From a virus (taxonomy: Duplodnaviria > Heunggongvirae > Uroviricota > Caudoviricetes), in the IMG/VR virus record IMGVR_UViG_2579778634_000020: a DNA stretch of 46,724 bases. One strand, 5' to 3'. The position numbers and the translations under genes are program-made. The notes under the pieces were generated by a model. That model was not told the DNA's origin and did no database searches. It saw only the letters and a program-made list of their open reading frames with translations. This document shows, piece by piece, positions 1 through 45,488 of this stretch; within the stretch, counting starts at the first letter, position 1; each line of letters starts with the position of its first letter.

Positions 1-7
1 CACTAAC

Positions 8-32
8 GCCCGCACATTGCTGCGGGCTTTTT
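8..32 (+). terminator. Rho-independent terminator hairpin (gcccgca..tgcgggc + TTTTT) closing a plus-strand transcript entering from the left of the window
   Basis: Seen in sequence: 7-bp GC stem with a 6-nt loop, followed by a T5 run on the plus strand. Confidence 0.6.
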
Positions 33-326
33 GATTCATTTCGCAAATGTGCTGACATTTTCCCCTCTAATCCGTACCATACACGCCACAGTTTTTTATA
101 TCAGATTTCTTATGCTGGGCGTTCCGGCATGACGCATACTCTTCTGATGCCATATAACGAATTGAGTCGCTTTTAATGTCGCAAAATCAAGAAATTAGTA
201 AGAAAGAACAATACAACCTGAACAAGTAAGGGCAAAAATCACAACCATCTGACACATAAAGATTTTATTTATTTTTCAAAACGTTAAACAATATCAGCGA
301 CTACAATAACCTACGATAACCCACTC

Positions 327-380
327 TTTTTTTGCCCCATTTTTGCCCCTTTTGCAGCGTTTTGCCCCATTTTTGCCACC
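327..380. repeat. Direct repeats of tttgccccatttttgcc (two copies at 331-347 and 361-377) in non-coding DNA downstream of the tail-fiber module
   Basis: Seen in sequence. The position suggests a prophage-end, att-arm or other protein-binding repeat; its function is unknown. Confidence 0.4.
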
Positions 381-552
381 ACAAAAAATCCTAAACCACA
401 CAAATCTAAAACCTACAAATTGCCCCCTTGGATACTTTTCAATAGAATCTGTTCCGGCTGGAAATCATTCAATACTCGCACTATCGAAAGTTATCCAGCC
501 AACCGCAGCACGTCCTGCATACGTCGTGTCTGCGGTTTTTCTTTTTCGCTTA

Positions 553-732
553 CATTGTGTCTGGTTCTTCCGGCCACTCAATATCAGGTGCAGTTGATGT
601 ATCAACACGGTTCAACAACACCCGATACTTTTTCCATGCGGCCAGTAACGCTTTCTCTTCCTCCGTTGCGATTTCCAGCTCAACAACAGTCTGAACGTAC
701 CGGGAACAGCCTCCTTCAGAGCTTGAAGGATA
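553..732 (-). pseudogene. tfa: Remnant of a tail fiber assembly (Tfa) gene: C-terminal 60 codons only, in frame directly after the stf TGA stop and lacking a start codon
   Basis: Translation ends ...[43 protein letters not shown]. This matches the conserved C-terminus of lambdoid Tfa proteins (TfaE, TfaR, lambda Tfa). There is no ATG or RBS, and the fragment begins at the stf stop codon. Confidence 0.7.
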
Positions 733-3222
733 TCAATGTTCGCTTCCTGTTAACTGCCGGACAAGTGCAACCAGTTCGCTTACCTGATTTTCCAGAGTGC
801 TGATCCGGGTGTCTGCTGTTGCCAGATTTTCACGTAGCGTTGTGTTTTCCTCTTCCAGCGCGGTAACGCGATCATCTGTTTCACGGGCGACCTGAACAAG
901 TAAACCCGTCACGGCGGCGTAGTCAACATTAAGATAGCGCGTTTCTTCGCGTAGCTCGTTGCCGTCAACGGTCGGACCTTGTAACGCTTCACCGTAATGA
1001 GTAAACGATCCCACAGCTTCCGGTAGCGCCTCCATTACCTCCTGAGCGATAACGCCAGCGTAAGGTAGTCCGTTTTCCTTAAGGGTATAAGTGTACCCGT
1101 TCATTTTGCGGATGGCTTCAGTTGCATCACCTATAACCTGAATGTTGTCCTTCAGATCACGATCAGATGATTGGTTTATCGTTTCGCATGTAATGTGACC
1201 AGACGCTTTAAGATTTTTTACATCAAGTCTGTCGTTTGCAAAATTATATGAAATTGCGGTGCTGGTGCTTCCGGCATCATCATAATCGCTTTTATGAATA
1301 AACCAGTTTCCACCATTAGCAATGAGAGTATAAGTAGGCGTGTTAGCCGGGCGATCTGTTTCATTAAATCTTATTGCTGGGTTAGCGCTCCTTATTTGTA
1401 AAGGTTTTTCAACCGTGGATTTCAGTATCGCACTATCTACAATTAAATTACCTTCTGAGTTAATGTTTAGATATTTTGAAGCACCAGTTGAACCATCGTA
1501 TGTAAACCTTATTGTTAATTGACCTGGCTCATTTGATAAAGTCTCAACATACATATCAGCACCAAGACGCACAGTGCTGTCAGTTGCTAACAGTCTTGTA
1601 TGGAGAATACCACTAGATGTGTATGTATTGGTCGAATCACTATATCTATCAAGAAATAGACTGTTAAGTTGAGGGCTATTGCTCCTGCCTAATCCAAGAT
1701 TCGTTCTGGCACCATCAATAGTTGCCGCACCAGTACCTCCGGCCGCGATCGAAAGCGGAATCCATTCGCTATTCTCTGCATCGTAATAACCCCATGTTCC
1801 TGAATCGTAGATACTAAAAAATTTGCTTGCATTTTGACAATATACGCGTGTATTACCTGTTAGTTGAGTAAGCCTGTCCACTTCATCTTTTCTTGCGTGA
1901 CGCGTCCACTGCGGGCCTATTGTCGGATTCCAGCGATAAGTATAAAGCGAGCGCGTAGCCCATCCCTGAAATACACCTGTATACGCTGGTGTTCCATCTA
2001 CCTGACTAATAAACCCCGTAAGACTGCTTTCACCGGATGCAATCGATGGAAAGCCTTTTGCATTACTCATAATGCGCATAAATCCGATATACCCTGATGG
2101 GTTGCCGGAAATATCAGGACAATCACGCGGGGCTGAGCCAAGACCGATATTATCGCCAACAATTACTTGCGCCTGGTTGCGATAATTAAGTGCGTCCGCT
2201 GCAGATTTCGCCGCGTTTGTTTCACTGGATTTAGCATTAGTTTCGCTGGCTTTAGCGTTTGTTTCGCTGCTCTTTGCTGCTGCCTCGCTATTTTTCGCGT
2301 TGGTTTCTGATTTTTTGGCTGCTGTCGCGGAGTTTGCCGATGCAGTTTGTGAGGCCGCTGCCGCCTGTGCGCTGTTATCCGCATTCGTCTCAGACGTTTT
2401 TGCGGCCTTCGCGGAATTTCCTGCCGCCGTTGCCGAGGAAGCTGCACTACTGGCACTTGATGATGCGTTCGTTTCTGATGATTTCGCTGCCTCTTTTGAG
2501 GCCGCCGCATCCCGGGCTGAGGTGGCAGCTTCTGACGCTTTCGTGGTCGCGGTGGATGCAGAAGTGGCTGCAGATTTTTGTGACGCTGCAGCATTCGTTT
2601 CTGACGTTTTCGCCGCACCGGCACTGGTAGCCGCCGCGCTTTTTGAGGACTCTGCAGCGGCAGCACTTTTTGATGCTTCAGTAGCCTTTGTTGATGCCGT
2701 TCCTGCGCTGGAAGACGCTGACTGAGCCGACGTCGCGGCCTGCCCGGCTGATGTGCTGGCTGCACGTGCTGAGCCTGCAGCATCAGTCGCATGGGTTGCC
2801 GCCTCACGGGCTGATGTGCCGGCATCGCTGGCTGACTTCTTCGCGGCTGCCGTGTTCTGTTCCACTGCGGACGCGTTACGCGCCACCTCTTCCACCATCA
2901 GTTCAAAGCGGCGCAGTGCCTCCGGACGGGCATCATCCTCCGTCATGGCACCGAGAAAATCATTCAGTGTGCCCGGCTTTGAGTCCTCATATACGGTGAT
3001 AATCCCGGCGTGTGACGGCGGGAATCCCTCCACCAACAGACTGACGCTGTACTGACCATACTCGACGTCCATTGTGTAACGCCCGGCTTCATCCGGGTTT
3101 TCTGAGGCCACTGTGTTCACCACCACCGTGGTGCTGTTGCGCCTGGCCTTTAGCTGAATGGTGCAGTTTTGTATCGGCTTACCTGCGCCATCTTTCAGTA
3201 CACCTGAAATCCGTACTGCCAT
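733..3222 (-). CDS. stf: Side tail fiber protein. The N-terminus is near-identical to lambda Stf, followed by a long Ala/Ser/Thr-rich repeat region and a C-terminal peptidase S74 intramolecular-chaperone domain.
   Basis: N-terminus MAVRISGVLKDGAGKPIQNCTIQLKARRNSTTVVVNTVASENPDEAGRY... matches lambda Stf. The C-terminal ~130 aa (DLKDNIQVIGDATEAIRKMNGYTYTL...coiled coil) resemble the endosialidase/T5 pb1 intramolecular-chaperone domain. An RBS of GGGGGG lies upstream. Confidence 0.9.
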   Translation of the reverse strand: MAVRISGVLKDGAGKPIQNCTIQLKARRNSTTVVVNTVASENPDEAGRYTMDVEYGQYSVSLLVEGFPPSHAGIITVYEDSKPGTLNDFLGAMTEDDARPEALRRFELMVEEVARNASAVEQNTAAAKKSASDAGTSAREAATHATDAAGSARAASTSAGQAATSAQSASSSAGTASTKATEASKSAAAAESSKSAAATSAGAAKTSETNAAASQKSAATSASTATTKASEAATSARDAAASKEAAKSSETNASSSASSAASSATAAGNSAKAAKTSETNADNSAQAAAASQTASANSATAAKKSETNAKNSEAAAKSSETNAKASETNAKSSETNAAKSAADALNYRNQAQVIVGDNIGLGSAPRDCPDISGNPSGYIGFMRIMSNAKGFPSIASGESSLTGFISQVDGTPAYTGVFQGWATRSLYTYRWNPTIGPQWTRHARKDEVDRLTQLTGNTRVYCQNASKFFSIYDSGTWGYYDAENSEWIPLSIAAGGTGAATIDGARTNLGLGRSNSPQLNSLFLDRYSDSTNTYTSSGILHTRLLATDSTVRLGADMYVETLSNEPGQLTIRFTYDGSTGASKYLNINSEGNLIVDSAILKSTVEKPLQIRSANPAIRFNETDRPANTPTYTLIANGGNWFIHKSDYDDAGSTSTAISYNFANDRLDVKNLKASGHITCETINQSSDRDLKDNIQVIGDATEAIRKMNGYTYTLKENGLPYAGVIAQEVMEALPEAVGSFTHYGEALQGPTVDGNELREETRYLNVDYAAVTGLLVQVARETDDRVTALEEENTTLRENLATADTRISTLENQVSELVALVRQLTGSEH
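2160..2860. repeat. Imperfect tandem nucleotide repeats encoding the (S/T)AxxAAxSxxxA low-complexity segment of Stf
   Basis: Seen in sequence: repeated gcNgcNtcNgaNgcN units. This produces the spurious overlapping ORFs on both strands (2163..2825 and 2300..2725). Confidence 0.8.
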
Positions 3223-3233
3223 ATTCCCCCCAC

Positions 3234-3259
3234 AAAAAAGCCCGCCTGAACCGGCGGGC
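3234..3259 (-). terminator. Intrinsic terminator/attenuator between lom and stf (minus-strand RNA GCCCGCC-GGUUCA-GGCGGGC-UUUUUU)
   Basis: Seen in sequence: 7-bp GC-rich stem followed by a U6 run on the minus strand. Confidence 0.65.
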
Positions 3260-3286
3260 TGTCATAACACTGTGTTACCTGGCTAA

Positions 3287-3886
3287 TCAGAATTTATAAC
3301 CGACACCAACGATGAAACTGTTGGTACGCCAGTCACCGCTGCCGGAGCCTTCATAAGCGACGTCAACGGCCACGGATTCGGTCGGGTTAAACTGCACGCC
3401 AGCTCCCCACGCCAGAGACGTGTTGCTGTGGCGACCGTCATCACTTCCGGTCAGCACATCGTGCGTTTTCCCCTTGTTGTCAGTTACGCGGATATAATCC
3501 CCGGAGAAAGTCGACACACGGCTGTAAGCCATACCCGCCATCGCATACGCGCTGAACCATTCATTCACGCGCACAGACGGCCCCGCCATCACGCTGAACC
3601 AGCGATTACGCACGGAATCCTCATGCCAGCGGGTATCGCTGTAATGCGTTTTTTGCTCATCTTCAGCGTTGGCATAACTGAATGACGTAATCAGCCCCAG
3701 CGTGTCCGTAAACTCATAACGGTATTTCACGTTAATCCCGTTCAGATTATCGCTGCCGGGAGCGTTCGTACGGGCATGAAGATACCCTGCGCTCAGTGTG
3801 GCCTGCTGCTCAGACGCCCATGCAGGCGCACCGGATACGGCCAGACAGATGGCTGCGGACAAAATGGCTGCACAAACTTTACGCAT
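3287..3886 (-). CDS. lom: Outer membrane protein Lom (Ail/Lom/PagC/OmpX family beta-barrel)
   Basis: 199 aa with a signal peptide. Near-identical to lambda Lom (MRK..AAILSAAICLAVSGAPAWAS...VGVGYKF). Confidence 0.95.
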   Translation of the reverse strand: MRKVCAAILSAAICLAVSGAPAWASEQQATLSAGYLHARTNAPGSDNLNGINVKYRYEFTDTLGLITSFSYANAEDEQKTHYSDTRWHEDSVRNRWFSVMAGPSVRVNEWFSAYAMAGMAYSRVSTFSGDYIRVTDNKGKTHDVLTGSDDGRHSNTSLAWGAGVQFNPTESVAVDVAYEGSGSGDWRTNSFIVGVGYKF

Positions 3887-3953: not shown

Positions 3954-6900
3954 TCAGCTGATACTGATGCCTGCGGTGGCTTTCTTCATCACCACAACCA
4001 GCAAATCGCTGATACTTGCTGTGGGATACCAGTCATTTACCAGCCATGCTGACACCGAAAACTCCAGCGTCGTGTGACCGTGACCGGCAGGCATATCAAT
4101 AACGCCACTGTAAATCAGCGTATTATCCAGCGCGGTACGGTTATAAATTTCAGCACCGTTTTTCCGCACTATCAGACGGCATGAGGAGTAAATATCAGTA
4201 TGCTCTCTCTCATGTTTAGCGCCGCTGAATGCCACCGCCGGAATAACAATCTGCCGGTCAAACGGCTGATCGTCATAAATCCTGACGGTAATGGTCCCTG
4301 ATGGCCACCGCTCCGGTGCCCGGGAGTCCCGCGGGAAAGCCTTACCCACTGTTTTGACAATATCGCCTTCAATCTGGTTGGCTGACAGTTTCCCTTTAAT
4401 CTGACAGTTCTCATTTATCGTAACGTTGTTGAGCGTCCCGGCGTTCGCATTCACACTGCCACTGATATCCGCATTTTTAGCGGTCAGCTTTCCGTCCGGT
4501 GTCAGGGAAAAGGCCGGAGGATTGCCGCCGCTGGTAATGGTGGGGGCCGTCAGGCGCTTCAGGAACACTTCATTCATGAATATCTGATCACCCTGACCAA
4601 CAAACATCGGTTTTGTGTTGCCATTCGCAGGATTAATCATCGCAATCCTGTCTGCCGCCAGCAGCACCTGACTCTGCATGCCGTCAGGGGTGTTCTCAAT
4701 ACCGGCACCAATACCCGCGATATAAAGGCGTCCGTCCTGCATCTGCTGCAGCTTCACAGCCCACATGCTGTTCAGGTTATTATTTGTATCAACCTGAACC
4801 TTCTGTATCTGCTGAATTGCAGCACTCTGGTCTTCCAGTTTCTTATTGACGGTCTGCGTGATTTCATTGCTGACATCCGTAATGGACGTCCTGATTTCAG
4901 CCAGGTCAGGCGCAAGCTGACCGTTATCAATCTGCGTCCACAGCTCCTGAGCCAGATGGGTTTTCCCTATCTCGCCTTTGAAAAAATCCAGATAACCGGA
5001 TGCATCATCACTCGGCTGACCAACAGCCTCCACGAATGCCGATTTGCCAACGGTGTTCACACTGCGGATATAAAAGTAATAATCATGGCCCGGTTTGATA
5101 TTGATACTGGCGGCTATCCAGTACAGCGCCGTACCAAGATAGCGTGCTGTGGTTTCAACCTGCCTGATATCCGCAATCCGCTTTTCCGAGAACCAGAACT
5201 CAAACTGTACCGTCGGATCATAAACCGCAAGATGCGGCGTGGCGGTTATCTGAAAATAGCCCGGTGTCAGCTCAATCCGAGACGGCGCTGCCGGTGCGGC
5301 AATCCGGAACGATACCGATGCCGGATCGCCCTGCTGTCCCCACGCATTTACCGCCCGGACTGTCAGCCTGTAGTTCCCCAGCGCCAGTTGCGTGAAGCGG
5401 TATGTAGTTTCCGTCGTCCGGGCCGTGCTGACCAGCCGCTCACTGCCGTCATCCGCTGCCACGGTCAGGCGAAGCATAAAGCTCACCCCCTTCACCACCT
5501 TCGGCGTGTCCCAGCGCGCCAGCACCTGATATTCCCCGCTGTCTGCGGTGACTTCGGCAGTCAGGTGCTGCACCGCTGGCGGCGTGACACCATTCACCGT
5601 GCCGCTCTGGTCGCCGTCAAAGTGCGCCCCGTTATCCACGATGGCCTCTTTTTCCGGCACATGCTGCACGGCGGTGATGGCATACGTGCCGTCGTCGTTC
5701 TCACGGATACTCACGCAGCGAAACAGTCGCTGGCGCAGCGTCGGCAGCTTCAGCCCCCATACGCTGTATTCAGCAACACCGTCAGGAACACGGCTCACTT
5801 TTACCTTCACGCCGTCGGTGGCGGACTGGACCTCCACGCTGACCGGATTGCCATTTCCGTCAACCAGGCTTATCAGCGTGGTACCGGAGGATGGCAGCGT
5901 GATTTCACGGTCGAGCGTCAGCGTCCGGGTCTGGCTGTTCACCGCCAGCACGCGCCCACCGGTGCTGATACCCGCATAGTCATCATCACAGATTTCAATG
6001 ACATCGCCCGGCACATGGCGAAGCCCTTCTGCGCCCACGCTGAAGTCCACGGTCTGCGTTTCCAGCAGTTCTGTTTTAATCAGCCACAGCCCGGCGCGGT
6101 GTGCCTGCCCCCGGCTGGTACAGCCAAAGGCATCCATCTTCGTGACATTACGACCATAACGGGCAATGGCCTGCGTATCTTCAACAAGCTCTGTCGCCGT
6201 CTCCCAGCCGTTGTCCGGGTCAATCCAGTTCACCTCAACGGCATTATGGCGGACCTTCAGGGCGCTGAAACTGTAGCGGAACGGCGCGCCATCATCCGGC
6301 ATCACCACATTACTGCGGTTATAGGTCCACACCTTATCCGACGGCCGGTCCTGCACGAACGTCAGCGTCTGCCCGTTCCATACCGGCATACAGCGCATCG
6401 CCGAGCAGAAATCACTGAGCACATCCCACGCCTTACGCTGTGTGGTCAGCCAGGCATTACAGGTGATGCGCGGCTCCGTGCCGCCAAAGCCGTCCGGCAC
6501 CGACTGGTCGCAGTACTGGCCGATGACATACAGCGCCCATTTATCCACATCCGCCGCACCAAGACGTTTCCCCATGCCGTAGCGCGGGTGGGTCAGCATA
6601 TCCCACAGACACCATGCCATGTTGTTGCTGTATGCTGGCTTAAACGTTCCGTCCCAGATACCGCTGTATTGCCGCGTCTGCGGGTTATAGTTCGACGGCA
6701 CCTGCAGAATGCGCCCGCGAAGATGATAATTACGGCTCACCTGCTGGCTGCCGAACTGCTCCGAGTCCACCTGTACGCCGACCAGTGCCGTGTTCGGGTA
6801 GCACTGTTTCACATCGATGATTTCGGTGTATGACGACCAGAGCGTTTTGTTCTGCAGCTGGTCTGTGGTGCTGTCCGGCGTCATCCTGCGCATCCGGATG

Positions 6901-7433
6901 TTGAACGGGCGCGGCGGCAGGTTACCCACCACCACCGAGGCCAGATACTGCGAGGTGGTTTTGCCCTTAATGGTGATGTCTTTTTCCGTCACCCAGCCAC
7001 CGTTACGTTGTATCTGAACCAGCAGGCGGACTTCCGACGGATTCCGGTCCCCCTTTGAGGTGGTTTCCACCAGTGCCTGCACACCGAAGGTAAAGCGCAG
7101 TCGGTCGATGTTTGCCGACGTGATGGCGCGGGTGATCGGCGTGTCGTATTTCACTTCCGTACCCAGCACCGTCTCGGAGCCGGAGGATTCAAATCCCTCC
7201 GGCGGAGTCTGCTCCTGCTCACCAGCCCGGAACACCACCGTGACACCGGCGATGTTGGTATTCCCCTCACTGTCCAGCACCGGCGTACTGTTCAGCAGCA
7301 CGCTTTTTAATCCATCCACCGGACCTTCAATCGGCCCTTCACTGATGGCATCAATCACACTCAGCAACTGCGTGGATTTCAGGTTGTCCTTCGCTTCACG
7401 CGGGGTATGCCCCTTACTGCTGCCTTTACCCAT
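3954..7433 (-). CDS. J: Tail tip host-specificity protein J (central tail fiber)
   Basis: 1159 aa, collinear with and highly similar to lambda gpJ ([26 protein letters not shown]...). The C-terminal receptor-binding region diverges from lambda. Confidence 0.95.
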
Positions 7434-23779: not shown

Positions 23780-24031
23780 TTAGTCCTGATTTTTATCCAC
23801 CCTGAGTAGTTCGCGCAGAGCAAAGGCATCCCCTTTTCTGGCAAGCTTAAACAATGCCGCTCGTAACTCGGCTTCACCTTTCGCTCTGCCCTTACGGATG
23901 GCCGCATAAAAATCTGTCATTGCTTCCCGATTTTCTTTCAGTCGGTTCAGATCAACATCCAGAACGTCAGCGATTTGTTGTGCAGTCATCCGGCACGCTG
24001 CCAGAGACTCGACTTTCGAATACGGAATCAT
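23780..24031 (-). CDS. Small HTH DNA-binding protein (83 aa), possibly packaging-associated
   Basis: MTAQQIADVLDVDLNRLKENREAM... is an HTH-like segment; located directly upstream of terS. Confidence 0.4.
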   Translation of the reverse strand: MIPYSKVESLAACRMTAQQIADVLDVDLNRLKENREAMTDFYAAIRKGRAKGEAELRAALFKLARKGDAFALRELLRVDKNQD

Positions 24032-24920
24032 TTGTCACCCCTATTGATATGCAGGGTGTCTTCTTCCTGTATTTTTCGTGAAGGATTTTTACTGCAGCGT
24101 TGTTCCAGGTGACCTGATGGTGAATGCGTTTATGGCTGGCACCCATCAGTGAGATTTTTACGCACGACGGCGCATACATGACGGAGTAAAAACTTTTAAC
24201 GTAGGTTCCGGAATCCAGATACAGCTCGGTCATTCCGCCGCTGTTTTTCTGCGTCTGTTTCTGCCCTAACTGGACAGCACCGATCGTCATGAACAATTCA
24301 CCACAGCGACCGAGATTCGTGTACGTATTCACATCCTCGTTAATGCGCCCCATGAATGAGAACGGTCGATCAACCGAACAGATAAAGCTGTTCATTGCCT
24401 TGCGTTTCACCCACGAAGCATGGCCGCCATTGTCACCAAGAAAATCCCCGCCCTGCGACATAGCGATGGAAAGAGCAGGTATTGATTCGTAGTACGCCAG
24501 CATTTCAGAAAGGATCGCATCCAGTTTCCTTATCGGAAAATAGGCCTGGTCATAGTTGCGATCCACCCGAAACTGGAACTCGTGATAATCATCATCGAGC
24601 TGAATGAAGTATTTACACCCGACCAGTTTTGCCAGGTCGAAACAGGCATTACGGGCGTAAAAAATTGAGCGGCGGTCACCGAAATTATCGGCTTCGTCAA
24701 AACGACTGGCGATATCGGCTTTGGAAAACACCAGCACCTGTTCACCAAATTCAGCCATGTACTGATGCCGTGTCTTATCTTCATCATCAACAACGATAAA
24801 AATTTTCCCGGTATAGCCAGCACGACGCAACGTCCGGTAAGTCAGAACTTTGTCCGGTCGCCCGTGAGTCAGAATAAAGGCGCAAAAATCATCACGCATA
24901 TTCCTCCTCCTCACCACCAT
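23967..24920 (-). CDS. Hypothetical protein with a GT-A-like glycosyltransferase signature (beta-strand/DD then DDD motif)
   Basis: FILTHGRPDKV...KIFIVVDDED ... YFIQLDDDYHEF resembles the nucleotide-diphospho-sugar transferase fold. Weak inference. Confidence 0.35.
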   Translation of the reverse strand: MVVRRRNMRDDFCAFILTHGRPDKVLTYRTLRRAGYTGKIFIVVDDEDKTRHQYMAEFGEQVLVFSKADIASRFDEADNFGDRRSIFYARNACFDLAKLVGCKYFIQLDDDYHEFQFRVDRNYDQAYFPIRKLDAILSEMLAYYESIPALSIAMSQGGDFLGDNGGHASWVKRKAMNSFICSVDRPFSFMGRINEDVNTYTNLGRCGELFMTIGAVQLGQKQTQKNSGGMTELYLDSGTYVKSFYSVMYAPSCVKISLMGASHKRIHHQVTWNNAAVKILHEKYRKKTPCISIGVTNDSVFESRVSGSVPDDCTTNR

Positions 24921-25683
24921 GCATGATCTCCACCATGCGCTGCGTCATCCGGACAAATCCATTTTCAATAGCCTGCTGATAATCAATGATCACCAGCGCC
25001 GACTCCTCGAAAAAACACTGAATTTCAGCGGGGGCGTGAGCGTAATAGTCCGCAATTCTGCTGAAATTAAACACCGTGTGACGTTCTGCCGCACACAGGA
25101 GGAATTTCTCAATATCAGGCTCAAGAGACGCCGAACGTATCCGGCTGATCAGCTCCTGAGTTTTCGTATCGTCGTACAGTTCACTGATATCCGGTTTACC
25201 GCCCGACGGCTCATAAACAGGCGTATCAATTTTCGTCGTATACGGCTCCTCCTCATTTCCTGTACCGGGCAAAACATCCGTCAACAGTTCATCAATTTCT
25301 GTCGGGATGAAGCCTGTCAGGGAGACATCAAAATCAGCATTGATTAGGTCCGACAGCTCCATCCGCAACAGATCTTCATCCCAGCCAGCATTCATCGGCA
25401 GGCGATTATCTGCCAGGCGGTACGCCTTTTTCTGCTCATCCGTCAGGCCAGACAGAACAATGACCGGAACAGAATCCATTTTGAGCATTTCAGCCGCCAT
25501 AACACGACCGTGACCCGCAATAATTTCGCCCTTTTCGTCAATCAGCACCGGATTAGTCCAGCCGAATTGCTTAATACTTTCTACCAGTTGTGCCACCTGC
25601 TCAGTACTGTGCGTCCTGGCGTTGTGCGCATACGGTGACAATTCTTGTAATGGGCGATAGACTATCTTTAATTTCTCGCTCAT
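24892..25683 (-). CDS. ParB-like nuclease domain protein (ParB/Srx N-terminal domain)
   Basis: N-terminal KIVYRPLQELSPYAHNARTHSTEQVAQLVESIKQFGWTNPVLIDEKGEIIAGHGR is typical ParB-N (GxxR). C-terminus acidic. Confidence 0.7.
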   Translation of the reverse strand: MSEKLKIVYRPLQELSPYAHNARTHSTEQVAQLVESIKQFGWTNPVLIDEKGEIIAGHGRVMAAEMLKMDSVPVIVLSGLTDEQKKAYRLADNRLPMNAGWDEDLLRMELSDLINADFDVSLTGFIPTEIDELLTDVLPGTGNEEEPYTTKIDTPVYEPSGGKPDISELYDDTKTQELISRIRSASLEPDIEKFLLCAAERHTVFNFSRIADYYAHAPAEIQCFFEESALVIIDYQQAIENGFVRMTQRMVEIMHGGEEEEYA

Positions 25684-25820: not shown

Positions 25821-27278
25821 TTAGGAGCGCCAAAAAAAACCTGAAAACAATATAATAACAGGATAAATTTCAAGGCGACCAAGAATCATAGCTATGCACA
25901 TTAAACATTTTGCAATGTCATTAAGCACTCCGAATGACGATGCAGTAGCCCCAAAACCTAATCCCATATTATTAATACATGCAGCCACTGTTGCAAATGA
26001 TGTAAGAAAATCATATCCCATACCATTTAACACCAGTATAAAAAACACCGTGAAGAGAGTATAAAGAAAAAAGAAACTCCATACAGACCTCATTACACGA
26101 TCTGTAACTATCTTCCCTCCTACATTTACACTCAACAACGCTCTGGGATGAGAAAGCTGATTTATCTCGTGTTTGCTTTGTTTGAAAAGTATAAGAAATC
26201 GAAGTGACTTAATTCCACCACAAGTTGAACCTATACATCCCCCAAAGAAACTTGACAACAGCAAAAACACTATCGTGTGCGTGGGCCAACTTGCATAATC
26301 CTGCGTAGCTAAACCATTATCAGTGAGCATGGAGCTGGCAAGAAAAAACGAATGAATAAAACTTCCATGCAAGTCATACATACCTATATGCCAGACCTGG
26401 AAAGAGGTAACAATGATCACCCCTAAGGCTATTAACAGAAAGAAACGAAGTTCAATATCTCTGATTAAAGGTTTTATCGTTTTCCTGCTAATAACAATAT
26501 ACCAAAGAGTGAAGTTGAAAGCCGATAGCAGGGAAAAAGAACCAGCCACCAGCTCAACCAAATAGTTATTAAAATATCCGATACTCTCGCTATGAGTTGA
26601 GAAACCACCAAGCGAAACTGTGGAAATCCCGTGACAAATAGCATCAAACAAAGGCATTCCTGCAAGTCTATAACAGACAATACAAGCAATACCTAATAAA
26701 GAATAAGTTATCCACAGTGTCCGTGACGTATCGGCCAGGCGGGGAGTGAGTTTGTCATCCTTAAATGGCCCCGGCATTTCTGACTGATAAAGCTTTGCAC
26801 CACCAATACCCAATAATGGCAATACAGCAACCGCCAGAACAATAACTCCTAAACCACCTATAAAATTTAACTGTGACCGATAGTACAAATATGCCCGAGG
26901 TAATGAACTAACATCATCAATTACAGTTGCTCCTGTTGTTGTTATTCCAGAAACCCCTTCAAACAGAGCATCAATGAACGTTAAATTAAGTTCTGAGTCA
27001 ATCCATAAAGGGAATGCACTAATAACAGAAAACAAAATCCAAAACATTACAATTATAATAAACCCATCACGGGTACGTAATTGAATGCCAGATTTCTTAG
27101 TTGTATACCACGCTCCGCCACCAATGCAAAAAAATATAACGAAAGTTATAAAGAAAACGAACAGGCTTTTTTCTTTATAAAACAATGCTACAACCATTGG
27201 TGGCAACATTGAAAGACTATAGAGCCAAACCAGGAACCCACACATATGAGTAACAACTCTTACATGAGATGTATTCAT
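25821..27278 (-). CDS. trkG: Trk-system K+ uptake protein TrkG (TrkH/KtrB family); prophage cargo gene. Start taken at MNTSHV.
   Basis: 485 aa polytopic membrane protein matching Rac-prophage TrkG of E. coli K-12 as I recall it. Much lower GC than the flanking phage genes. Confidence 0.9.
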   Translation of the reverse strand: MNTSHVRVVTHMCGFLVWLYSLSMLPPMVVALFYKEKSLFVFFITFVIFFCIGGGAWYTTKKSGIQLRTRDGFIIIVMFWILFSVISAFPLWIDSELNLTFIDALFEGVSGITTTGATVIDDVSSLPRAYLYYRSQLNFIGGLGVIVLAVAVLPLLGIGGAKLYQSEMPGPFKDDKLTPRLADTSRTLWITYSLLGIACIVCYRLAGMPLFDAICHGISTVSLGGFSTHSESIGYFNNYLVELVAGSFSLLSAFNFTLWYIVISRKTIKPLIRDIELRFFLLIALGVIIVTSFQVWHIGMYDLHGSFIHSFFLASSMLTDNGLATQDYASWPTHTIVFLLLSSFFGGCIGSTCGGIKSLRFLILFKQSKHEINQLSHPRALLSVNVGGKIVTDRVMRSVWSFFFLYTLFTVFFILVLNGMGYDFLTSFATVAACINNMGLGFGATASSFGVLNDIAKCLMCIAMILGRLEIYPVIILFSGFFWRS

Positions 27279-27415
27279 ATCTAAATATTCTTTCAATTAT
27301 AACCACCTTGCTGCAATATTATGATTATACTGTATAAAATTTAACTCCTCTTAGATCTTACTTCACTGTTCCTTATGAAACAATCATCAAAATGAATCAT
27401 ATTGTAGTTAAGATT

Positions 27416-32031: not shown

Positions 32032-33861
32032 ATGAGCACTTCCGCATACAAGAGCAAAATTCGAACACTCCAGTGCGCGTTAAAAAACGGTGAATTTGAA
32101 CCATTCATACAACATATCCGTTTTCCATACTTTAAAAATATAGAGCAGAATGCAAGGATCGATTTTCAGTTCCCTATAACGGCTTTAGTAGGAAAAAATG
32201 GAACTAATAAAAGTTCTGTTATCAAAGCGCTATTTGGTTGCCCACATGGTAAAAATATAACTCGTTATTGGTTCACAACTGAAACAGATGAGTTTCCTGA
32301 CCTAAAACTTGCTGATGGCAGTTCTCTTAAACCTAGATATATATATGGATATAAAAATGCTGATGGCCGTTTAGTTGAAATACTCCAAGCACGTATCAAT
32401 GCTACCAAGAAAACAATCGATTATTGGGAAACAAGTCGACCATCTGTTGGTGATAACATGGAGAGTATTTCGGATGATCTGGGTGCTAATAGTAATGCAA
32501 CCAGATGGAAAAAAATCAAGAAGGGATTGGTTTTCCTAGATTTCAGATCGGAAATAAGTGCATTTGATAGATGTATGTATCACTCTGATTTTAAATTAAG
32601 AAAGAAGAAGAGTGGTGTATTAATTACAAAGCAAGACTATATCAGAAGCAAATCTAAATATATAAAGAAAGCTTTTGATGAAAAGCTAAGTAATTTAAGA
32701 CTCTGGGGGGCGGAAACCATTGTTAAAAATATAACCTTGGCGCCAGAACTAGTTGAGCACGTCTCATTTATATTAGGGAAAAAATATAAAGTCATTAAAT
32801 TTCTTGAGCATCGGTTATTTGGAACCAGAGGAGGAACCGCTTTACTTTCAACTGATAAGTTGAACTATACAGAAGCGTTTGCTGGAAGTGGTGAATTTGC
32901 AATAGTTTCACTAATACTCAATATTTATTCGGCCAAACCTAATTCATTAATTCTTCTTGACGAACCAGAAGTTTCACTTCACCCTGGTGCACAAAAAAGG
33001 ATGATGGATGTTCTGTACTCTATTGTTGAGCAGAAAAAACATCAAGTGGTAATATCAACCCATTCTCCTGTTATTGTGAACACTCTTCCCAAAGATGCCA
33101 TTAAATTATTTGTTTTTGATGAAGAGAGTGAAACAGCTAAAATAGTTCAAAATATAGCACCGGATGAAGCTTTTATAGAGCTAGGGCATGATATTAACAA
33201 GAAAACAATAATTGTAGAAGATAAATTAGCTAAAGCAATTATAGATAAAGCGATTAAAAATGATGAAAGATTAAGCTTATCATTTAGTGTAAGTTATATA
33301 CCAGGTGGTTCGGAGACCATTTTAAGCAAGCATCTTCCCAGTTACGCTGTGGTAGAACGCAATGATATTTTGTTTTTACTTGATGGTGATAAAAACAAAA
33401 AAATAAAACCAGTAAGAATTAGTGAAATTGCTGATGCTGATTTAGTTAATACAATGTGCAAATATTATGGTTGCGAGTTAATTATCAATGCCAGTGGTAG
33501 TAATGGCAAAAAAAATGAACAAGAATCTAATAGACTCAAAAGGCAAGTGCTTGAGTATGCATTCAATAAAGTGCAGTATTTACCATTTGATACTCCCGAA
33601 CAATTACTCATTGAAAAGGCAATTACGCCAAGTGAAAAAGAAATAATTGATTCACAGACCTGGAGTTCTAATGATCCAGAACTGTATAAGAATCAAATAA
33701 GATTATTAGCGCAACACCTGTATGATAAAGAAGAAGTAAATGCAGAGGAAATTTTTTGCCTCCAACAAATGATGACCGCAAGACTTAAAAATGAATTGCC
33801 TGAATTTATAAAAATAAGAAAAATAATTACTCAGGCTCTTGACCGTGGTATCATTAGGTAG
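32032..33861 (+). CDS. OLD-family nuclease-like protein: N-terminal ABC/AAA_21-type ATPase + C-terminal Toprim domain
   Basis: Walker A VGKNGTNKSS; Walker B/D-loop LILLDEPEVSLHP; H-loop VVISTHSP; C-terminal Toprim-like IIVEDKLAK (conserved Glu) and FLLDGDKN (DxD). 609 aa, close to P2 Old (586 aa). About 33% GC versus roughly 50% in the flanks. Confidence 0.75.
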   Translation: MSTSAYKSKIRTLQCALKNGEFEPFIQHIRFPYFKNIEQNARIDFQFPITALVGKNGTNKSSVIKALFGCPHGKNITRYWFTTETDEFPDLKLADGSSLKPRYIYGYKNADGRLVEILQARINATKKTIDYWETSRPSVGDNMESISDDLGANSNATRWKKIKKGLVFLDFRSEISAFDRCMYHSDFKLRKKKSGVLITKQDYIRSKSKYIKKAFDEKLSNLRLWGAETIVKNITLAPELVEHVSFILGKKYKVIKFLEHRLFGTRGGTALLSTDKLNYTEAFAGSGEFAIVSLILNIYSAKPNSLILLDEPEVSLHPGAQKRMMDVLYSIVEQKKHQVVISTHSPVIVNTLPKDAIKLFVFDEESETAKIVQNIAPDEAFIELGHDINKKTIIVEDKLAKAIIDKAIKNDERLSLSFSVSYIPGGSETILSKHLPSYAVVERNDILFLLDGDKNKKIKPVRISEIADADLVNTMCKYYGCELIINASGSNGKKNEQESNRLKRQVLEYAFNKVQYLPFDTPEQLLIEKAITPSEKEIIDSQTWSSNDPELYKNQIRLLAQHLYDKEEVNAEEIFCLQQMMTARLKNELPEFIKIRKIITQALDRGIIR

Positions 33862-34925
33862 TGATTCTGGATGCAGAGGGAAAAATGAAAAAAATCAAAG
33901 TGTTTGACTTCTTTTCCGGTTGTGGTGGAACCAGCCAAGGTTTCCATCAAGCTGGAATGGATATTGTTTTTGGCCTCGATTTCGACGTTGATGCAGCCAG
34001 TTCATTTCGTGCAAATTTCCCGCAGGCTGCTTTTATTAACTCGGACATTAGGTTAATCGACAACAATGCCATAAACAAGTTAGTAAAAAAACATCGTAAT
34101 GATTACATTCTTTTTTCAGGATGTGCGCCTTGTCAACCGTACTCTAAGCAAAACTCAAATAAGAAAAATGATGATCCACGATTAGATCTATTAAAGGAAT
34201 TCAGTCGCTTTGTAGAGCATTATATGCCTGATTTTATTTTTGTTGAAAACGTGCCAGGAATGCAAAAGTTTAACAAAAATGAAGGAACATTCATGATGTT
34301 TTTAGAAATGCTTTCATCAAAGGGATATAGTGTAGATTATAAAGTAATGCCAGCTGCGTGGTACGGTGTACCACAGACGCGAGAAAGATTAGTGCTCATT
34401 GCATCCAAGGATTTTTATGTCGCATTGCCTTCTCCTACACATGGGGTTGGAAATACTCCCTATTCAACAGTAAAGGACTGGATCGCTAATTTACCGAAGA
34501 TAGAAGCAGGAGAAAAGCATAATAGTATTCCTGATCATGAAGCTGCACGCTTATCAGAGCTTAATTTACGTAGAATAAAATGCACTCCTGAAGGTGGAAG
34601 TCGAGAATTTTGGCCAGATGAATTGATTTTAGAATGCCATCGTAACCATAAAGGGCATACAGACGTATATGGACGTTTGAGTTGGGACAAACCAGCCAGC
34701 GGACTAACAACTCGTTGTATTAGCTATTCAAATGGACGTTTTGGACATCCAACACAAAATCGAGCAATATCGGTTCGTGAAGCAGCGTGTCTACAAACAT
34801 TTCCTTTGGATTATAAATTTATTGGTTCTTTGCAATCTCGGGCTCGTCAAATAGGAAATGCGGTCCCTCCGAAGATGTCTGAAACGATTGGAAAACATTT
34901 GCTTAATATAATCAAAGCCTCCTAG
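33861..34925 (+). CDS. DNA (cytosine-5)-methyltransferase. The ORF-track start is a GTG overlapping the upstream TAG; the probable start is ATG 33885 (MKKIKVFDFFSGCGG) with RBS AGGGA.
   Basis: Motif I FFSGCGG, motif IV GCAPCQPYS (catalytic Cys), motif VI ENVPGM, motif X QIGNAVPP. Confidence 0.9.
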   Translation: MILDAEGKMKKIKVFDFFSGCGGTSQGFHQAGMDIVFGLDFDVDAASSFRANFPQAAFINSDIRLIDNNAINKLVKKHRNDYILFSGCAPCQPYSKQNSNKKNDDPRLDLLKEFSRFVEHYMPDFIFVENVPGMQKFNKNEGTFMMFLEMLSSKGYSVDYKVMPAAWYGVPQTRERLVLIASKDFYVALPSPTHGVGNTPYSTVKDWIANLPKIEAGEKHNSIPDHEAARLSELNLRRIKCTPEGGSREFWPDELILECHRNHKGHTDVYGRLSWDKPASGLTTRCISYSNGRFGHPTQNRAISVREAACLQTFPLDYKFIGSLQSRARQIGNAVPPKMSETIGKHLLNIIKAS

Positions 34926-37808: not shown

Positions 37809-38231
37809 TCAATGCACTACGACAGAATCGCTAGGAGAACCGCCGCCGCTGAAATGTGCTTTACGGTAAACGGCCTGGACTGCATCATCATGCGCATCAA
37901 TTGCCGTACTCAGTGCATCCTGTGCCGCCAGTAATGCACGGCGTTCCAGGGTATCGAAGATGCAGAGTCGGTGACGCAGCTCGCGAGGAAGAATTGCCAG
38001 AACCGCAGGGATCAGTTTCTGAATTTTTTCCCTTTGCGCATTCGTTTCACCTTTCAACCAACGATGATAGATATTCTGCTGATTGTTCCAGTCCTTGCCT
38101 GGTACCAGGGGCAATTCGCCGCCCCCCTGGCGCAGATATTCTTCAGTAATTGCGTTAGCGACCCACGCCTGCCCTTTTTCGGCTGCCAGGGCTAACAACA
38201 CTGATTCGATGTGCTCATGCTTGATTTTCAT
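37809..38231 (-). CDS. ydaT: YdaT (CII-like regulatory protein / toxin of the Rac immunity region)
   Basis: 140 aa, the same length as K-12 YdaT. Position downstream of ydaS. Confidence 0.8.
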   Translation of the reverse strand: MKIKHEHIESVLLALAAEKGQAWVANAITEEYLRQGGGELPLVPGKDWNNQQNIYHRWLKGETNAQREKIQKLIPAVLAILPRELRHRLCIFDTLERRALLAAQDALSTAIDAHDDAVQAVYRKAHFSGGGSPSDSVVVH

Positions 38232-38482
38232 GAATCAACTCCCATCAGCTTTTTCGTAGTAGTTTTATTTCTGCCAATAGTTAAAATTGCATCGGCAGAA
38301 AATAATCCGTTTGATGCATGAGCGATTTTTTCAGCGTAATTTGTTTCGCCGGTATATTCTGTGCGAGGCAATTTTCCGTTATCCATCCATTTGTAGATTG
38401 CTCTTTGGCTGACACCACAAACGTCGGCCACAACAGAAACGCGAACAGTTTTGATTACATCTTCAAGTGTTTTCTGGTTCAT
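38228..38482 (-). CDS. ydaS: YdaS, Cro-like HTH regulator (start MNQKTLEDV, RBS GAGGGTG)
   Basis: HTH VCGVSQRAIYKWMDNGKLP. Divergent from racR. Confidence 0.85.
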   Translation of the reverse strand: MNQKTLEDVIKTVRVSVVADVCGVSQRAIYKWMDNGKLPRTEYTGETNYAEKIAHASNGLFSADAILTIGRNKTTTKKLMGVDS

Positions 38483-38561
38483 ATCACCCTCACAATGTGA
38501 ACTTTGAGTACATGCTATAACAGAACTGACAGTACATTCAAGAGCGAATATCATTGAACTT
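38483..38561. promoter_or_regulatory. racR-ydaS divergent promoter/operator region
   Basis: 79-bp intergenic region between divergently transcribed repressor and cro-like genes. Confidence 0.6.
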
Positions 38562-38981
38562 ATGGTTCATGAAGATAAAGCGCGTAAAGAGTTCGCCAGT
38601 AGGCTTGCGCTAGCCTGTGAAAACGCTGGTTATGAACAACATGGAAGGCAGGCAGAAATTGCCCGTCGAATGAAATTAACACCAAAAGCGGTTAGCAAAT
38701 GGTTTAATGGTGAAACAATTCCTCGCCGAGAGAAATTAAGGGAATTAGCAACACTCATTGGAACAACACCAACCTATCTTTTGGGAGAGGATACAGAAGA
38801 AAGTGGACAGATACGTTTCTATCAGGAGTTAAATCCAAGACAAAAAATCATCATTGACCTTCTGGACGAGCTCCCTGACAGTGAGACAGATGAACTTTTA
38901 AAAACTCTTGAGGAGAAAAAACAGAAGTACAATGCAATTTACGAAGAGTTAGCACGAAAGAAAAAACAAAAAGCCTCTTAA
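38562..38981 (+). CDS. racR: Prophage repressor RacR-like (XRE-family HTH)
   Basis: 139 aa with N-terminal HTH (QAEIARRMKLTPKAVSKWFNGE). CI-position, divergent from ydaS. Confidence 0.75.
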   Translation: MVHEDKARKEFASRLALACENAGYEQHGRQAEIARRMKLTPKAVSKWFNGETIPRREKLRELATLIGTTPTYLLGEDTEESGQIRFYQELNPRQKIIIDLLDELPDSETDELLKTLEEKKQKYNAIYEELARKKKQKAS

Positions 38982-39413: not shown

Positions 39414-39569
39414 ATGCAAAAAATCGACCTCGGCAACAACGAATCCCTGGTGTGCGGCGTGTTCCCCAACCAGGATGGAACGTTCACTGCCATGACGTAT
39501 ACCAAAAGCAAAACATTTAAAACCGAAACTGGTGCGCGCCGATGGTTGGAGAAGCACACAGTAAGCTAA
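39414..39569 (+). CDS. ydaF: Rac prophage small protein YdaF (51 aa)
   Basis: MQKIDLGNNESLVCGVFPNQDGTFTAMTYTKSKTFKTETGARRWLEKHTVS. Its end overlaps the sieB 3' end convergently. Confidence 0.7.
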   Translation: MQKIDLGNNESLVCGVFPNQDGTFTAMTYTKSKTFKTETGARRWLEKHTVS

Positions 39570-40054
39570 CGATTAAAACGTCTACTCCTGCTGTTCCAGA
39601 ATAACTTCATAAAATGGGAGTATTTTTCGGTGACGAGATAATAAGAACAGTTTGCGCTATCACTCTGATGTTGAATGATGCCCTTCCGTTCTAATTTTTT
39701 CATAACCGGGTTACGGCAAGGAGAAGTGATAATAAGATTTCCTGTTTTAAGGAAATCTTTAAATACAGCGATTTCTTTCTCAGATAAACGAAGCAATACT
39801 CGTTGCTCTGGTAGTAATGAATAATGCTTTTGAATATGTGCTCGCAATCTTGAGAAGGAAATGGCGACCACGAAAGAAAAGGCAAAAACGATAATCTGAA
39901 AGAGCCAAGGTATTTCAGTATAAGCATTGAATGCGACAGTAAACTCTTTCGGTATCAGCCAGAGAGTGAGACCAAAAATGATAATCGTATACATAAGTCT
40001 TTCGAGTGGCTCGTTAGCAAAAAGTTTCAACAATGGAGTAAATACATCCAACAT
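39566..40054 (-). CDS. sieB: Superinfection exclusion protein SieB (162 aa from MLDVFTPLLK). The ORF-track N-terminal extension to 40177 is not part of the gene.
   Basis: Essentially identical to K-12 Rac SieB as recalled. TM segments present. Confidence 0.9.
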   Translation of the reverse strand: MLDVFTPLLKLFANEPLERLMYTIIIFGLTLWLIPKEFTVAFNAYTEIPWLFQIIVFAFSFVVAISFSRLRAHIQKHYSLLPEQRVLLRLSEKEIAVFKDFLKTGNLIITSPCRNPVMKKLERKGIIQHQSDSANCSYYLVTEKYSHFMKLFWNSRSRRFNR

Positions 40055-40495
40055 ATCAATAACTCTCAACTGTAAGGGTATTGAAATGTTAACACAAGCT
40101 CTCGCTGTAGGGGTATAGCCGAGACCACCGAAGCCCGGAGGTGGTGAAATAAAACCGGGCACAACACGAAGGCGCATTTCCGATATCCATAAAGAGTCGG
40201 TCTTGTCTGTTAAATTTAAATGGTGGGAGTGCGCCTCCGGTTGTAAATAACGACATTGCTGTGTGTAGTCCTGGCGGCATCAGTTTTTTTCTTGAAGTTC
40301 GGCTGATGTCCGCCCTTTTTAAAGTGAATTTTGTGATGCGGTGAATGCGGCTAAGCGCACGTGGCACAGTTAAAAGTCATGTTAGTCCTTATTGGTTTGG
40401 GTGGGAAAGCCGACTGTAATTGTTAACTGGTTGCAGTCACCTGGAGGCACCAGGCACCGCATCAACAAAGTTCATTTGTAAAAATGGAGATAATT

Positions 40496-43939: not shown

Positions 43940-44741
43940 GCAACCACCAATCGCAAAAGCCGATCTGCAAAAAACTCAGGGAAACCGTGCACCAGCAGCA
44001 ATTAAAAATAACGACGTGATTAGTTTTATTAACCAGCCATCAATGAAAGAGCAACTGGCAGCAGCTCTTCCACGCCATATGACGGCTGAACGTATGATCC
44101 GTATCGCCACCACAGAAATTCGTAAAGTTCCGGCGTTAGGAAACTGTGACACTATGAGTTTTGTCAGTGCAATCGTACAGTGTTCACAGCTCGGACTTGA
44201 GCCCGGTAGCGCCCTCGGTCATGCATATTTACTGCCTTTTGGTAATAAAAACGAAAAGAGCGGTAAAAAAAACGTTCAGCTAATCATTGGCTATCGCGGC
44301 ATGATTGATCTGGCTCGCCGTTCAGGTCAAATCGCCAGCTTGTCAGCCCGTGTTGTCCGTGAAGGTGACGAGTTTAATTTCGAATTTGGCCTTGATGAAA
44401 AGTTAATACACCGCCCAGGAGAAAACGAAGATGCCCCTGTTACCCACGTCTATGCTGTCGCAAGACTGAAAGACGGAGGTACTCAGTTTGAAGTTATGAC
44501 GCGCAAACAGATTGAGCTGGTGCGCAGCCAGAGTAAAGCTGGTAATAACGGGCCGTGGGTAACTCACTGGGAAGAAATGGCAAAGAAAACGGCTATTCGT
44601 CGCCTGTTCAAATATCTGCCCGTATCAATTGAGATCCAGCGTGCAGTATCAATGGATGAAAAGGAACCACTGACAATCGATCCTGCAGATTCCTCTGTAT
44701 TAACCGGGGAATACAGTGTAATCGATAATTCAGAGGAATAA
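43932..44741 (+). CDS. recT: Recombinase RecT (ssDNA annealing protein)
   Basis: 269 aa from [17 protein letters not shown]...; matches RecT. Confidence 0.95.
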
Positions 44742-44796
44742 TTCAGCCTGGCGGTGTAATGCACCGCCAACTTGAAATATTTTTATGAGAAAAATT

Positions 44797-44991
44797 ATGA
44801 GATATGACAATGTTAAACCATGTCCATTTTGTGGTTGTCCATCAGTAACGGTGAAAGACATTTCAGGATATTACCGGGCAAAATGCAACGGATGCGAATC
44901 CCGAACTGGCTATGGTGGAAGTGAAAAAGAAGCGCTCGAAAGATGGAATAAACGAACCACTGAAAATATTAATGGAGGCGTTCATGTATAA
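44797..44991 (+). CDS. ralR: RalR (Lar) restriction-alleviation protein / type I TA toxin (64 aa from MRYDNVKP)
   Basis: MRYDNVKPCPFCGCPSVTVKDISGYYRAKCNGCESRTGYGGSEKEALERWNKR... matches RalR. Confidence 0.9.
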   Translation: MRYDNVKPCPFCGCPSVTVKDISGYYRAKCNGCESRTGYGGSEKEALERWNKRTTENINGGVHV

Positions 44992-45172
44992 AATTACCGC
45001 TACAATTGAAAAGGAAGGTGGCACTCCTACTAACTGGACAAGATATTCAAAATCTAAACTAACGAAATCAGAATGCGAAAAAATGCTCTCAGGTAAAAAA
45101 GAAGCAGGCGTTTCCAGAGAGCAGAAAGTAAAACTGATAAATTTTAATTGCGAGAAACTTCAGTCCTCGTGA
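44972..45172 (+). CDS. ydaC: YdaC (DUF1187) small protein
   Basis: ...MYKITATIEKEGGTPTNWTRYSKSKLTKSECEKMLSGKKEAGVSREQKVKLINFN... The start codon is uncertain (44972 or 44984); the ORF-track start at 44912 overlaps ralR. Confidence 0.6.
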   Translation: MEAFMYKITATIEKEGGTPTNWTRYSKSKLTKSECEKMLSGKKEAGVSREQKVKLINFNCEKLQSS

Positions 45173-45487: not shown

Positions 45488-45488
45488 T

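Follow-up and report, generated by a model that had tools for sequence, protein, structure and literature searches.

The DNA analyzed here, referred to as the window, is the IMG/VR virus record IMGVR_UViG_2579778634_000020 at its full length of 46,724 nucleotides, and it is a near-complete Rac-family prophage. Its minus strand includes the end of a lambdoid late operon, in which gene J (7433..3954) is followed by lom (3886..3287), a hairpin, and the side tail fiber gene stf (3222..733). Just beyond stf lies a short sequence that resembles the 3′ end of tfa, the gene for the tail fiber assembly protein Tfa. In this study, we examined the junction between stf and this tfa stub, which we consider likely to be the fossil of a tail fiber tip exchange in a Rac-family lambdoid prophage.

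Past the stf stop codon (TGA, 735..733), the stf frame remains open for exactly 60 sense codons (732..553) until a TAA at 552..550, and the earliest ATG, GTG, or TTG in this frame is a GTG at codon 38. A preliminary description of the locus had correctly reported that these 60 codons share the frame of stf and have no usable start codon. It had also assigned all of them to the conserved C terminus of Tfa, which proved right for codons 13-60 (from position 696) but not for the first 36 nucleotides, which are not recognizably tfa. Likewise, the range 553-732 that it gave covers the 60 sense codons but leaves out the stub's own stop codon. We delimit the tfa stub as 550..696 (minus strand), comprising 48 codons (696..553) and the TAA (552..550), with no start codon.

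The assignment of these codons to Tfa is based on protein profiles, structures, and DNA alignments. Residues 13-57 of the 60-residue translation match positions 86-130 of the 131 positions in the Pfam profile Caudo_TAP (77.1 bits against a cutoff of 22.1, E=1.7e-21), and the stub also aligns with the C-terminal end of Mu Tfa in PDB 5YVQ_B, of which the final 43 of 175 residues (133-175) are covered (E=2.5e-7). In a tblastn comparison with lambda Tfa, residues 147-191 are aligned with 78% identity (E=7e-18), and the 48 codons of the stub are equivalent to lambda residues 147-194. These matches bear out the similarity to Tfa on which the preliminary description depended. DNA homology with intact tfa genes (those of lambda, PhiR26_1, and an E. 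coli prophage) begins at window position 695, and all tblastn alignments to intact Tfa proteins open at “VQ” (codon 13-14). Among tfa alleles, the stub region is the most conserved DNA, being ~86-91% identical to lambda and other intact alleles.

Tfa proteins are composed of a variable N-terminal fiber-binding domain and a conserved C-terminal helical trimerization domain (PMC9608196). The stub retains exactly the conserved C-terminal domain, which matches this architecture. Its counterpart is the C-terminal helical domain, which spans residues 147-191 in lambda Tfa and 133-175 in Mu U (Caudo_TAP, 5YVQ), whereas the fiber-binding N-terminal three quarters, the start codon, and the ribosome-binding context have all gone. 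A functional tfa gene would be an open reading frame (ORF) of ~175-195 codons with a start codon and an N-terminal fiber-binding domain, and here only Caudo_TAP positions 86-130 of 131 are present. Furthermore, a tblastn search with lambda Tfa revealed no further Tfa homologue in the 46.7-kb window. A scan for terminators and promoters returned nothing above chance in the stub or just after it, and an NCBIfam search gave no match for either Stf or the stub. We regard the stub, as judged from its sequence, as homologous to Tfa yet not a tfa gene.

The preliminary description had placed the stub directly at the stf stop, with the junction at the stop codon itself. This placement must be revised because a 36-nucleotide spacer (697..732, minus strand), which contains GAAGGAGG, intervenes between the stf stop and the tfa-like sequence. 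The spacer (732..697) has no match to intact Tfa or tfa in any frame. When read across the stf stop in frame 2 (697-760, minus strand), the region encodes a peptide with a loose likeness to the Tfa sequence “AEETKNSLMQVASEHIAP”. However, splicing this peptide onto the stub raises the Caudo_TAP score by only 1.5 bits (78.9 versus 77.4), and no intact Tfa matches that part. An intact Tfa carrying “VQTVVELE” was also sought in a search of 5.8 billion proteins, and the best 120 matches are all fragments of 42-86 residues, most of them labeled “partial”. The sequence “GTTCAGACTGT” was found beyond the junction only in one unrelated gene. In addition, six fixed differences from intact alleles fall within the first 18 nucleotides of the stub, and all 49 copies have them. 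The founding breakpoint thus probably lies inside the spacer or at its edge, and it cannot be placed more finely.

The gene on the other side of the junction, stf (733..3222, minus strand), has 829 codons plus the TGA, as delimited by the ORF list, Pfam, and identity to phage PhiR70_1. Its product begins with an N-terminal attachment domain (residues 1-134; 2821..3222, minus strand) that matches Pfam PF08400, phage_tail_N, with E=1.8e-70, and the first 94 residues are almost the same as the N terminus of the lambda tail fiber (PDB 9e7m, E=2.4e-49). The presence of phage_tail_N and the location of the gene after J and lom on the same strand identify the protein as a lambda-type Stf. An Ala/Ser-rich stalk of “SETNA” repeats follows (residues ~135-355; 2158..2820, minus strand), whose extent was taken from the translation and the limits of phage matches. 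Next is the distal receptor-binding region (residues ~356-685; 1168..2157, minus strand), which was delimited by composition profile and match boundaries. The distal region is AT-rich, with a GC fraction of 0.37-0.39 over 1101-1700, and the segment 1183..1876 is not in common with phage mEp460. By receptor-binding type, the window belongs to a cluster (R3) that also includes NDM1 and PhiR70_1.

DNA identity to lambda is 86% from the end of lom to approximately codon 280 of stf, in agreement with the earlier statement that the N terminus and repeats of Stf are lambda-like. The identity extends to approximately codon 325 in phage Ayreon and codon 449 in mEp460, and homology to lambdoid stf genes stops at different points in the stalk (~2381 for lambda, ~2249 for Ayreon). 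PhiR70_1 Stf is 91% identical along the entire gene. The C-terminal domain is again common to mEp460 and Ayreon from window position 1183 downward. Because these phage identities end at staggered codons, stf is a nested mosaic composed of a lambda-type attachment domain, a repeat stalk, an AT-rich distal region, and a C-terminal domain in common with mEp460 and Ayreon. The homologue in E. coli NDM1 (L001, 1082-3568) is split by RefSeq into two entries, of which the N-terminal one is a “partial” pseudogene and the other a “tail fiber domain-containing protein”. The DNA of the NDM1 homologue is, however, a single unbroken ORF of 828 codons, and the split is probably an annotation artefact.

The C-terminal domain (residues 686-829; 736..1167, minus strand) corresponds to a Peptidase_S74 intramolecular chaperone that ends in a long coiled coil. 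Residues 686-737 match positions 1-57 of the 58 in Pfam PF13884 with 54.3 bits (cutoff 22, E=1.6e-14), and the domain opens with the motif SDRDLK (residues 686-691), in which Ser686 (codon 1167..1165) is the predicted scissile residue and Lys691 is encoded at 1152..1150. The profile match and the Ser686/Lys691 motif uphold the S74 domain that had been proposed for the C terminus of Stf. In T5 pb1, the scissile serine is Ser1264 and the activating lysine is Lys1269 (PMC4690869), and the Ser-x4-Lys spacing in Stf is equal to that of this pair. The motif also lines up with “SSDRRIKKDI” of the fiber chain in PDB 6F45, and its six residues (alignment positions 86-91) are at least 90% conserved among 36 homologues.

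An AlphaFold2 monomer model of the last 229 residues of Stf has a mean predicted local distance difference test score (pLDDT) of 67.8, with values of 77-98 in the chaperone part. The model has strands forming a beta-hairpin at model residues 137-166, and these are followed by a 58-residue helix at 168-225. When the model was compared with the PDB, the sole significant matches were six chains of 3GW6, the K1F chaperone (E=2-7e-4, probability ~1.0), yet with TM-scores of 0.25-0.29, which are low, as expected when an extended trimeric domain is modeled as a monomer. On the basis of the profile and the motif, we accept the Peptidase_S74 assignment at the sequence level, and we take the fold comparison as supportive but not decisive. 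The domain is similar to those of K1F endosialidase (3GW6) and T5 pb1 (4UW8), each of which has ~135-145 C-terminal residues with Ser-x4-Lys at the start and then a long helix or coiled coil. The passenger is a lambda-type side tail fiber here, whereas it is a tailspike in K1F and a bullet domain in T5. The comparison with these two proteins made in the preliminary description is therefore apt for the chaperone domain but not for the receptor-binding part.

The junction is not confined to the window. The combination of stf 3′ end, spacer, and stub is also found in phages mEp460, Ayreon, and PhiR70_1, and in each of these phages, tblastn with the stub peptide finds one place only, which is the stub itself. 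The exact 39-nucleotide junction pattern is present in 50 IMG/VR contigs, and a 241-nucleotide junction probe has matches in 803 of the 5,426 complete E. coli genomes, which together hold ~1,400 copies. Therefore, the junction is not the local footprint that it was initially thought to be. Among 185,579 species-representative genomes, none contains the exact pattern, and no spread past E. coli strains was detected. RefSeq labels the pair as an S74-family or tail fiber protein followed by “tail fiber assembly protein; incomplete; missing N-terminus”, and the 60-residue conceptual translation is itself in protein databases as a partial Tfa (P0004). The phages and the RefSeq pairs thus share the 39-nucleotide junction, the 36-nucleotide spacer, the S74 chaperone tail, and the tfa stub. 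PhiR70_1 additionally has the receptor-binding region of the window, whereas mEp460 and Ayreon carry other receptor-binding regions upstream of the chaperone. Unlike these phages, the window joins the cassette to the right end of a Rac-site prophage beside uspF.

The spacer is 36 nucleotides long in all 54 copies examined, which points to one founding event. The junction is thus a single old allele that has been inherited by descent and spread by recombination. Accordingly, the frame that the stub shares with stf is a single outcome with a chance of one in three rather than a repeated observation, and the significance that the preliminary description attached to the in-frame position falls away. 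Overall, the junction is an ordinary finding of a well-understood kind, a widespread and already annotated allele whose pieces and mechanism are established.

Given the open frame, we considered whether the stub is translated, via UGA readthrough or internal initiation, to supply the C-terminal trimerization helix of Tfa. The stub shares its frame with stf, in nearly all copies this frame has no stop for 60 codons, GAAGGAGG provides a Shine-Dalgarno-like motif within the spacer, and stand-alone ORFs of ~85-90 residues consisting mainly of the conserved Tfa domain exist elsewhere (P0058, L073). However, no ATG, GTG, or TTG follows GAAGGAGG ahead of the start at codon 38, and the shared frame stems from one event with its prior of one in three. 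Both polymorphisms in the spacer are non-synonymous in the stf frame (S/P, R/W), and independent classes of stubs share no relation to an upstream ORF. A readthrough tail would, moreover, sit on the chaperone fragment that is discarded after the predicted cleavage at Ser686. UGA followed by U is reportedly a comparatively efficient terminator (Poole et al. 1995). Translation of the stub is therefore extremely improbable.

The stub is far from uniform, with more than 35 peptide variants among 55 loci and endings that match different tfa alleles (PEEPDTM, PAVPVME, PTNPVRE, PALP, PVAPIG, and VNPVWPPPSKR). The common junction joins three main receptor-binding clusters upstream to 13 contexts downstream. 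The spacer has two haplotypes that follow the upstream receptor-binding type, the stub ending goes with the downstream cluster, and the blocks between them occur in shuffled combinations. The Hudson-Kaplan minimum is seven recombination events in the 159 nucleotides of spacer and stub versus two in the adjacent 150 nucleotides of stf. The locus thus has the makeup of a mosaic joint, with one joint, varied modules on both sides, and breakpoints within a conserved stretch.

Some of this diversity would also be expected if the stub were a purely neutral scar that plays no part in cassette mobility and varies under relaxed constraint. Informative polymorphic sites are ~4.5 times as numerous in the stub as in the neighboring end of stf (33 versus 7), the stub has no start codon, one copy (L018) is frameshifted, and an S74 cassette without a stub exists (L170). 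Yet the variants are coherent blocks that match known tfa endings (PAVPVME, PTNPVRE, PALP, and others) and covary with the downstream context, whereas random decay would give stops or frameshifts in more than one of ~50 copies. In a limited sample that excludes L018, 30 of 56 minor alleles are common to intact or other tfa copies, and seemingly private blocks recur in other partial Tfa entries. We therefore consider a purely neutral scar unlikely, and the patterns of variation suggest that the stub is still an active zone of homologous recombination. Its open frame would have been kept by repeated copying from functional alleles, i.e., by recombination rather than by selection.

The copy in the window provides an example. 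The window is identical to PhiR70_1 over 799..616 and identical to the Rac-site stub and flank of WEM25 over 636..400; beyond 400 to position 1, it is 99.6-99.8% identical to WEM25 and ET358. Taken over window positions ~1..639, the matches to these two genomes have 99.7-99.8% identity. Identity to PhiR70_1 on one side and to WEM25 on the other places the switch within 636..616, and we mapped this interval from mismatches as a putative crossover site inside the stub (616..636, minus strand). The WEM25 stub starts at 639, and its allele is not traceable further left. Thus, the window's own stub looks chimeric. Among the complete E. coli genomes searched, only three records cover at least 80% of window positions 1-760. 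Two of these (WEM25 and ET358) have the stub only, the third (rl0044) has an intact stf-tfa pair, and the S74 junction is in none of them. The downstream context of the window (D13) is likewise a singleton among the IMG/VR loci.

A similar exchange is known from experiments on recombination of lambda with Rac and Qin across stf-tfa. In recombinants between lambda and Rac, one third of right-hand crossovers fell in a 95%-identity region of tfa (De Paepe et al. 2014, PMC3945230). That system resembles the present one in that a lambdoid phage entering the cell exchanges homologous DNA with a defective prophage already resident there, right crossovers lie in conserved tfa, the site is that of Rac, and a RecET-type module is involved. 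The partners in that study (De Paepe et al. 2014, PMC3945230) both had full stf-tfa, whereas here one partner offers only a 144-nucleotide stub as a homology arm.

The stub region also coincides with a match to the Rfam small-RNA family IS009 (RF02111). In a cmscan search, the whole model aligned to 793..593 (minus strand) with 81.6 bits and E=4e-18, and the region could accordingly be viewed as a small-RNA gene rather than a pseudogene. This score is below the gathering threshold of 117 bits, and the model consensus is the coding sequence of intact tfa 3′ regions. Only the tfa-homologous half of the match aligns well. Furthermore, base pairs are few in the model, and the window sequence makes two of them non-standard. 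A small-RNA gene is thus very unlikely. In E. coli genomes, IS009 matches mostly mark tfa genes and stubs, and such matches are interpretable as tfa coding sequence.

To place the stub among other tfa remnants, IMG/VR was scanned with the conserved core of the tfa 3′ end, which returned at least 120 loci. A total of 151 core copies, from IMG/VR loci that also included the 50 with the junction pattern, were classified: 67 are intact-like, 38 have the S74 junction, 43 are other truncations, and 3 are cut by contig ends. For the core scan alone (the at least 120 loci), we estimate roughly 55% intact copies, ~10% with the S74 junction, and ~35% otherwise truncated. The apparent universality of the stub is partly an ascertainment effect because the search used the stub's own core.

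The other truncations are varied. A stub that starts at ATEEE (L168, L068, and L070) follows a different cassette that is composed of an Stf of 688-785 residues, a small ORF, a further gene, and a 97-residue membrane-like ORF. The further gene is a separate S74 fiber gene of 346 residues in L168 and an ORF of 234 residues in L068. A further stub is fused to a fragment of the pin invertase in L063 and also in WEM25, with one such fusion at EAWK, and several other truncations have breakpoints near “SEHIAP”. These tfa breakpoints are at codons ~131, ~156, and ~165, as opposed to ~147 here, and the differences mark them as independent events. Another locus (L170) has a separate S74 gene and no stub, which shows that the stub is not required. 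Two unrelated S74 arrangements have each lost the N-terminal part of tfa, which fits the dispensability of Tfa when a chaperone is built in. The cryptic prophages of K-12 also include tfa pseudogenes, likewise C-terminal tfa fragments beside replaced fiber cassettes.

Some observations on related loci are worth recording. Other fiber cassettes with different tfa stubs include those at L004 (3764-4090) and L168 (362-4504). Short stand-alone ORFs that have a start codon and consist mainly of the conserved C-terminal Tfa domain are present in Providencia (P0058, 85 residues) and in L073 (~90 residues, ATG). These “mini-Tfa” ORFs are comparable to PHROG 2341 (88 positions) and PHROG 3792 (78 positions).

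The observations on the junction are consistent with the following history of a tail fiber tip exchange. In an ancestral lambdoid phage, the distal part of stf and most of tfa would have been replaced by a fiber tip ending in a Peptidase_S74 chaperone. Such a fiber would be predicted to trimerize and fold with the aid of its own C-terminal 144 residues, which would then be released by self-cleavage at Ser686, with Lys691 acting as the base, such that a separate Tfa would not be needed. The exchange would have deleted the ~146 leading codons of tfa, for the variable fiber-binding domain, and left the last 48, for the conserved helical domain, behind the 36-nucleotide spacer. On this account, autoproteolysis, the dispensability of Tfa, and the order of events are what we infer from the arrangement. 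The module-replacement scar posited in the preliminary description survives in its essentials, in that an S74 tip was gained, the last quarter of tfa was left, and the window has no other Tfa, but not in the position of the junction.

Since that exchange, the stub would have persisted as a non-coding pseudogene fragment within the 3′ untranslated region of the late mRNA, and it would keep recombining with intact tfa genes and other stubs of coresident or infecting lambdoid phages. In this manner, it may act as a right-hand homology arm that moves S74-type fiber cassettes between phage backbones. For the copy in the window, a cassette of the PhiR70_1 type would have recombined, at a point within 636..616, with the right end of a prophage resident at the Rac site.

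Several points weigh against this history. First, a sensitive blastn search of window positions 690-860 against 50,697 phage records found only four stub-bearing records (three phages) and no stub-free S74 donor. Because no stub-free donor was found at the DNA level, how the founding exchange took place, and in which direction, is inferred. Second, the proposed exchange does not account for the source of the 36-nucleotide spacer or for the six fixed differences in the first 18 nucleotides of the stub. Third, four-gamete incompatibilities such as those counted above can also arise through recurrent mutation. Fourth, the frame is open in every complete copy except L018, as purifying selection on a translated product would also give. 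Finally, Stf is dispensable for plaque formation by lambda, and therefore viable phages with the S74-stub arrangement are no proof that fibers assemble without Tfa.

A bolder proposal is that the 3′ end of tfa is retained as a “portable homology arm” through selection at the level of cassette mobility, which we regard as quite unlikely. Under this proposal, fused S74 fibers, separate S74 fiber genes, and invertase-linked segments could all keep the stub for swaps by relaxed recombination of the RecET/Red type. In a weaker variant, the stub may carry a cis-acting RNA of the IS009 type.

With the tip exchange as the preferred reading, the locus offers a clean and well-sampled example of host-range module movement among temperate phages, in which the conserved tail of a dead chaperone gene would still serve as a crossover zone that links one fiber cassette to many backbones. 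For annotation purposes, the 60 codons are best treated as a pseudogene fragment and not as a protein. For phage engineering, this arrangement suggests that S74-type tips could be grafted onto lambda Stf without tfa and that the stub may represent a natural graft boundary.

The surrounding prophage has the genes of the Rac family, including RecE, RecT, an integrase, a YdaT-like protein, a helix-turn-helix repressor-like protein, SieB, and a TrkH/TrkG-like transporter (41339-46724 on the plus strand, 37809-38981, 39566-40177, and 25821-27296). Both RecE (Exonuc_VIII, 866 residues) and RecT are encoded by the window prophage itself, and the integrase, which has an Arm-DNA-bind_2 domain, is interrupted by the end of the window. 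Although the Rac prophage of K-12 is of the same family, the set of head and tail genes is complete in the window prophage only. At the other end, the right end of the prophage and the chromosome junction (1..549) constitute the region with 99.6-99.8% identity to WEM25 and ET358. In relatives, a uspF-ompN-nifJ flank follows, which is the Rac prophage site, and uspF is directly next in WEM25 and ET358.

The hairpin between lom and the start of stf (3239-3260, minus strand) is terminator-like, with eight pairs, of which seven are GC, followed by a run of T residues. Its counterpart carries a terminator annotation in mEp460 and Ayreon. A chance-level match to the Rfam model Trp_leader arises from this hairpin.

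Within the prophage right end, just downstream of the tfa stub, positions 458-535 are ~90% identical to a segment of the lambda b region between ea47 and ea31 and partly overlie a small annotated ORF (L006, 4237-4315). This patch is a further small mosaic piece. Elsewhere in the window, a gene for a TET-associated glycosyltransferase (TAGT, E=6.5e-35) adjoins a gene for a protein with a ParB_N domain beside the terminase genes (23967-25683, minus strand), and on the opposite strand, a C-5 cytosine DNA methylase comes immediately after a 609-residue ATPase (AAA_21/AAA_15; 32032-34925, plus strand). Both regions are possible DNA-modification or defense cargo.

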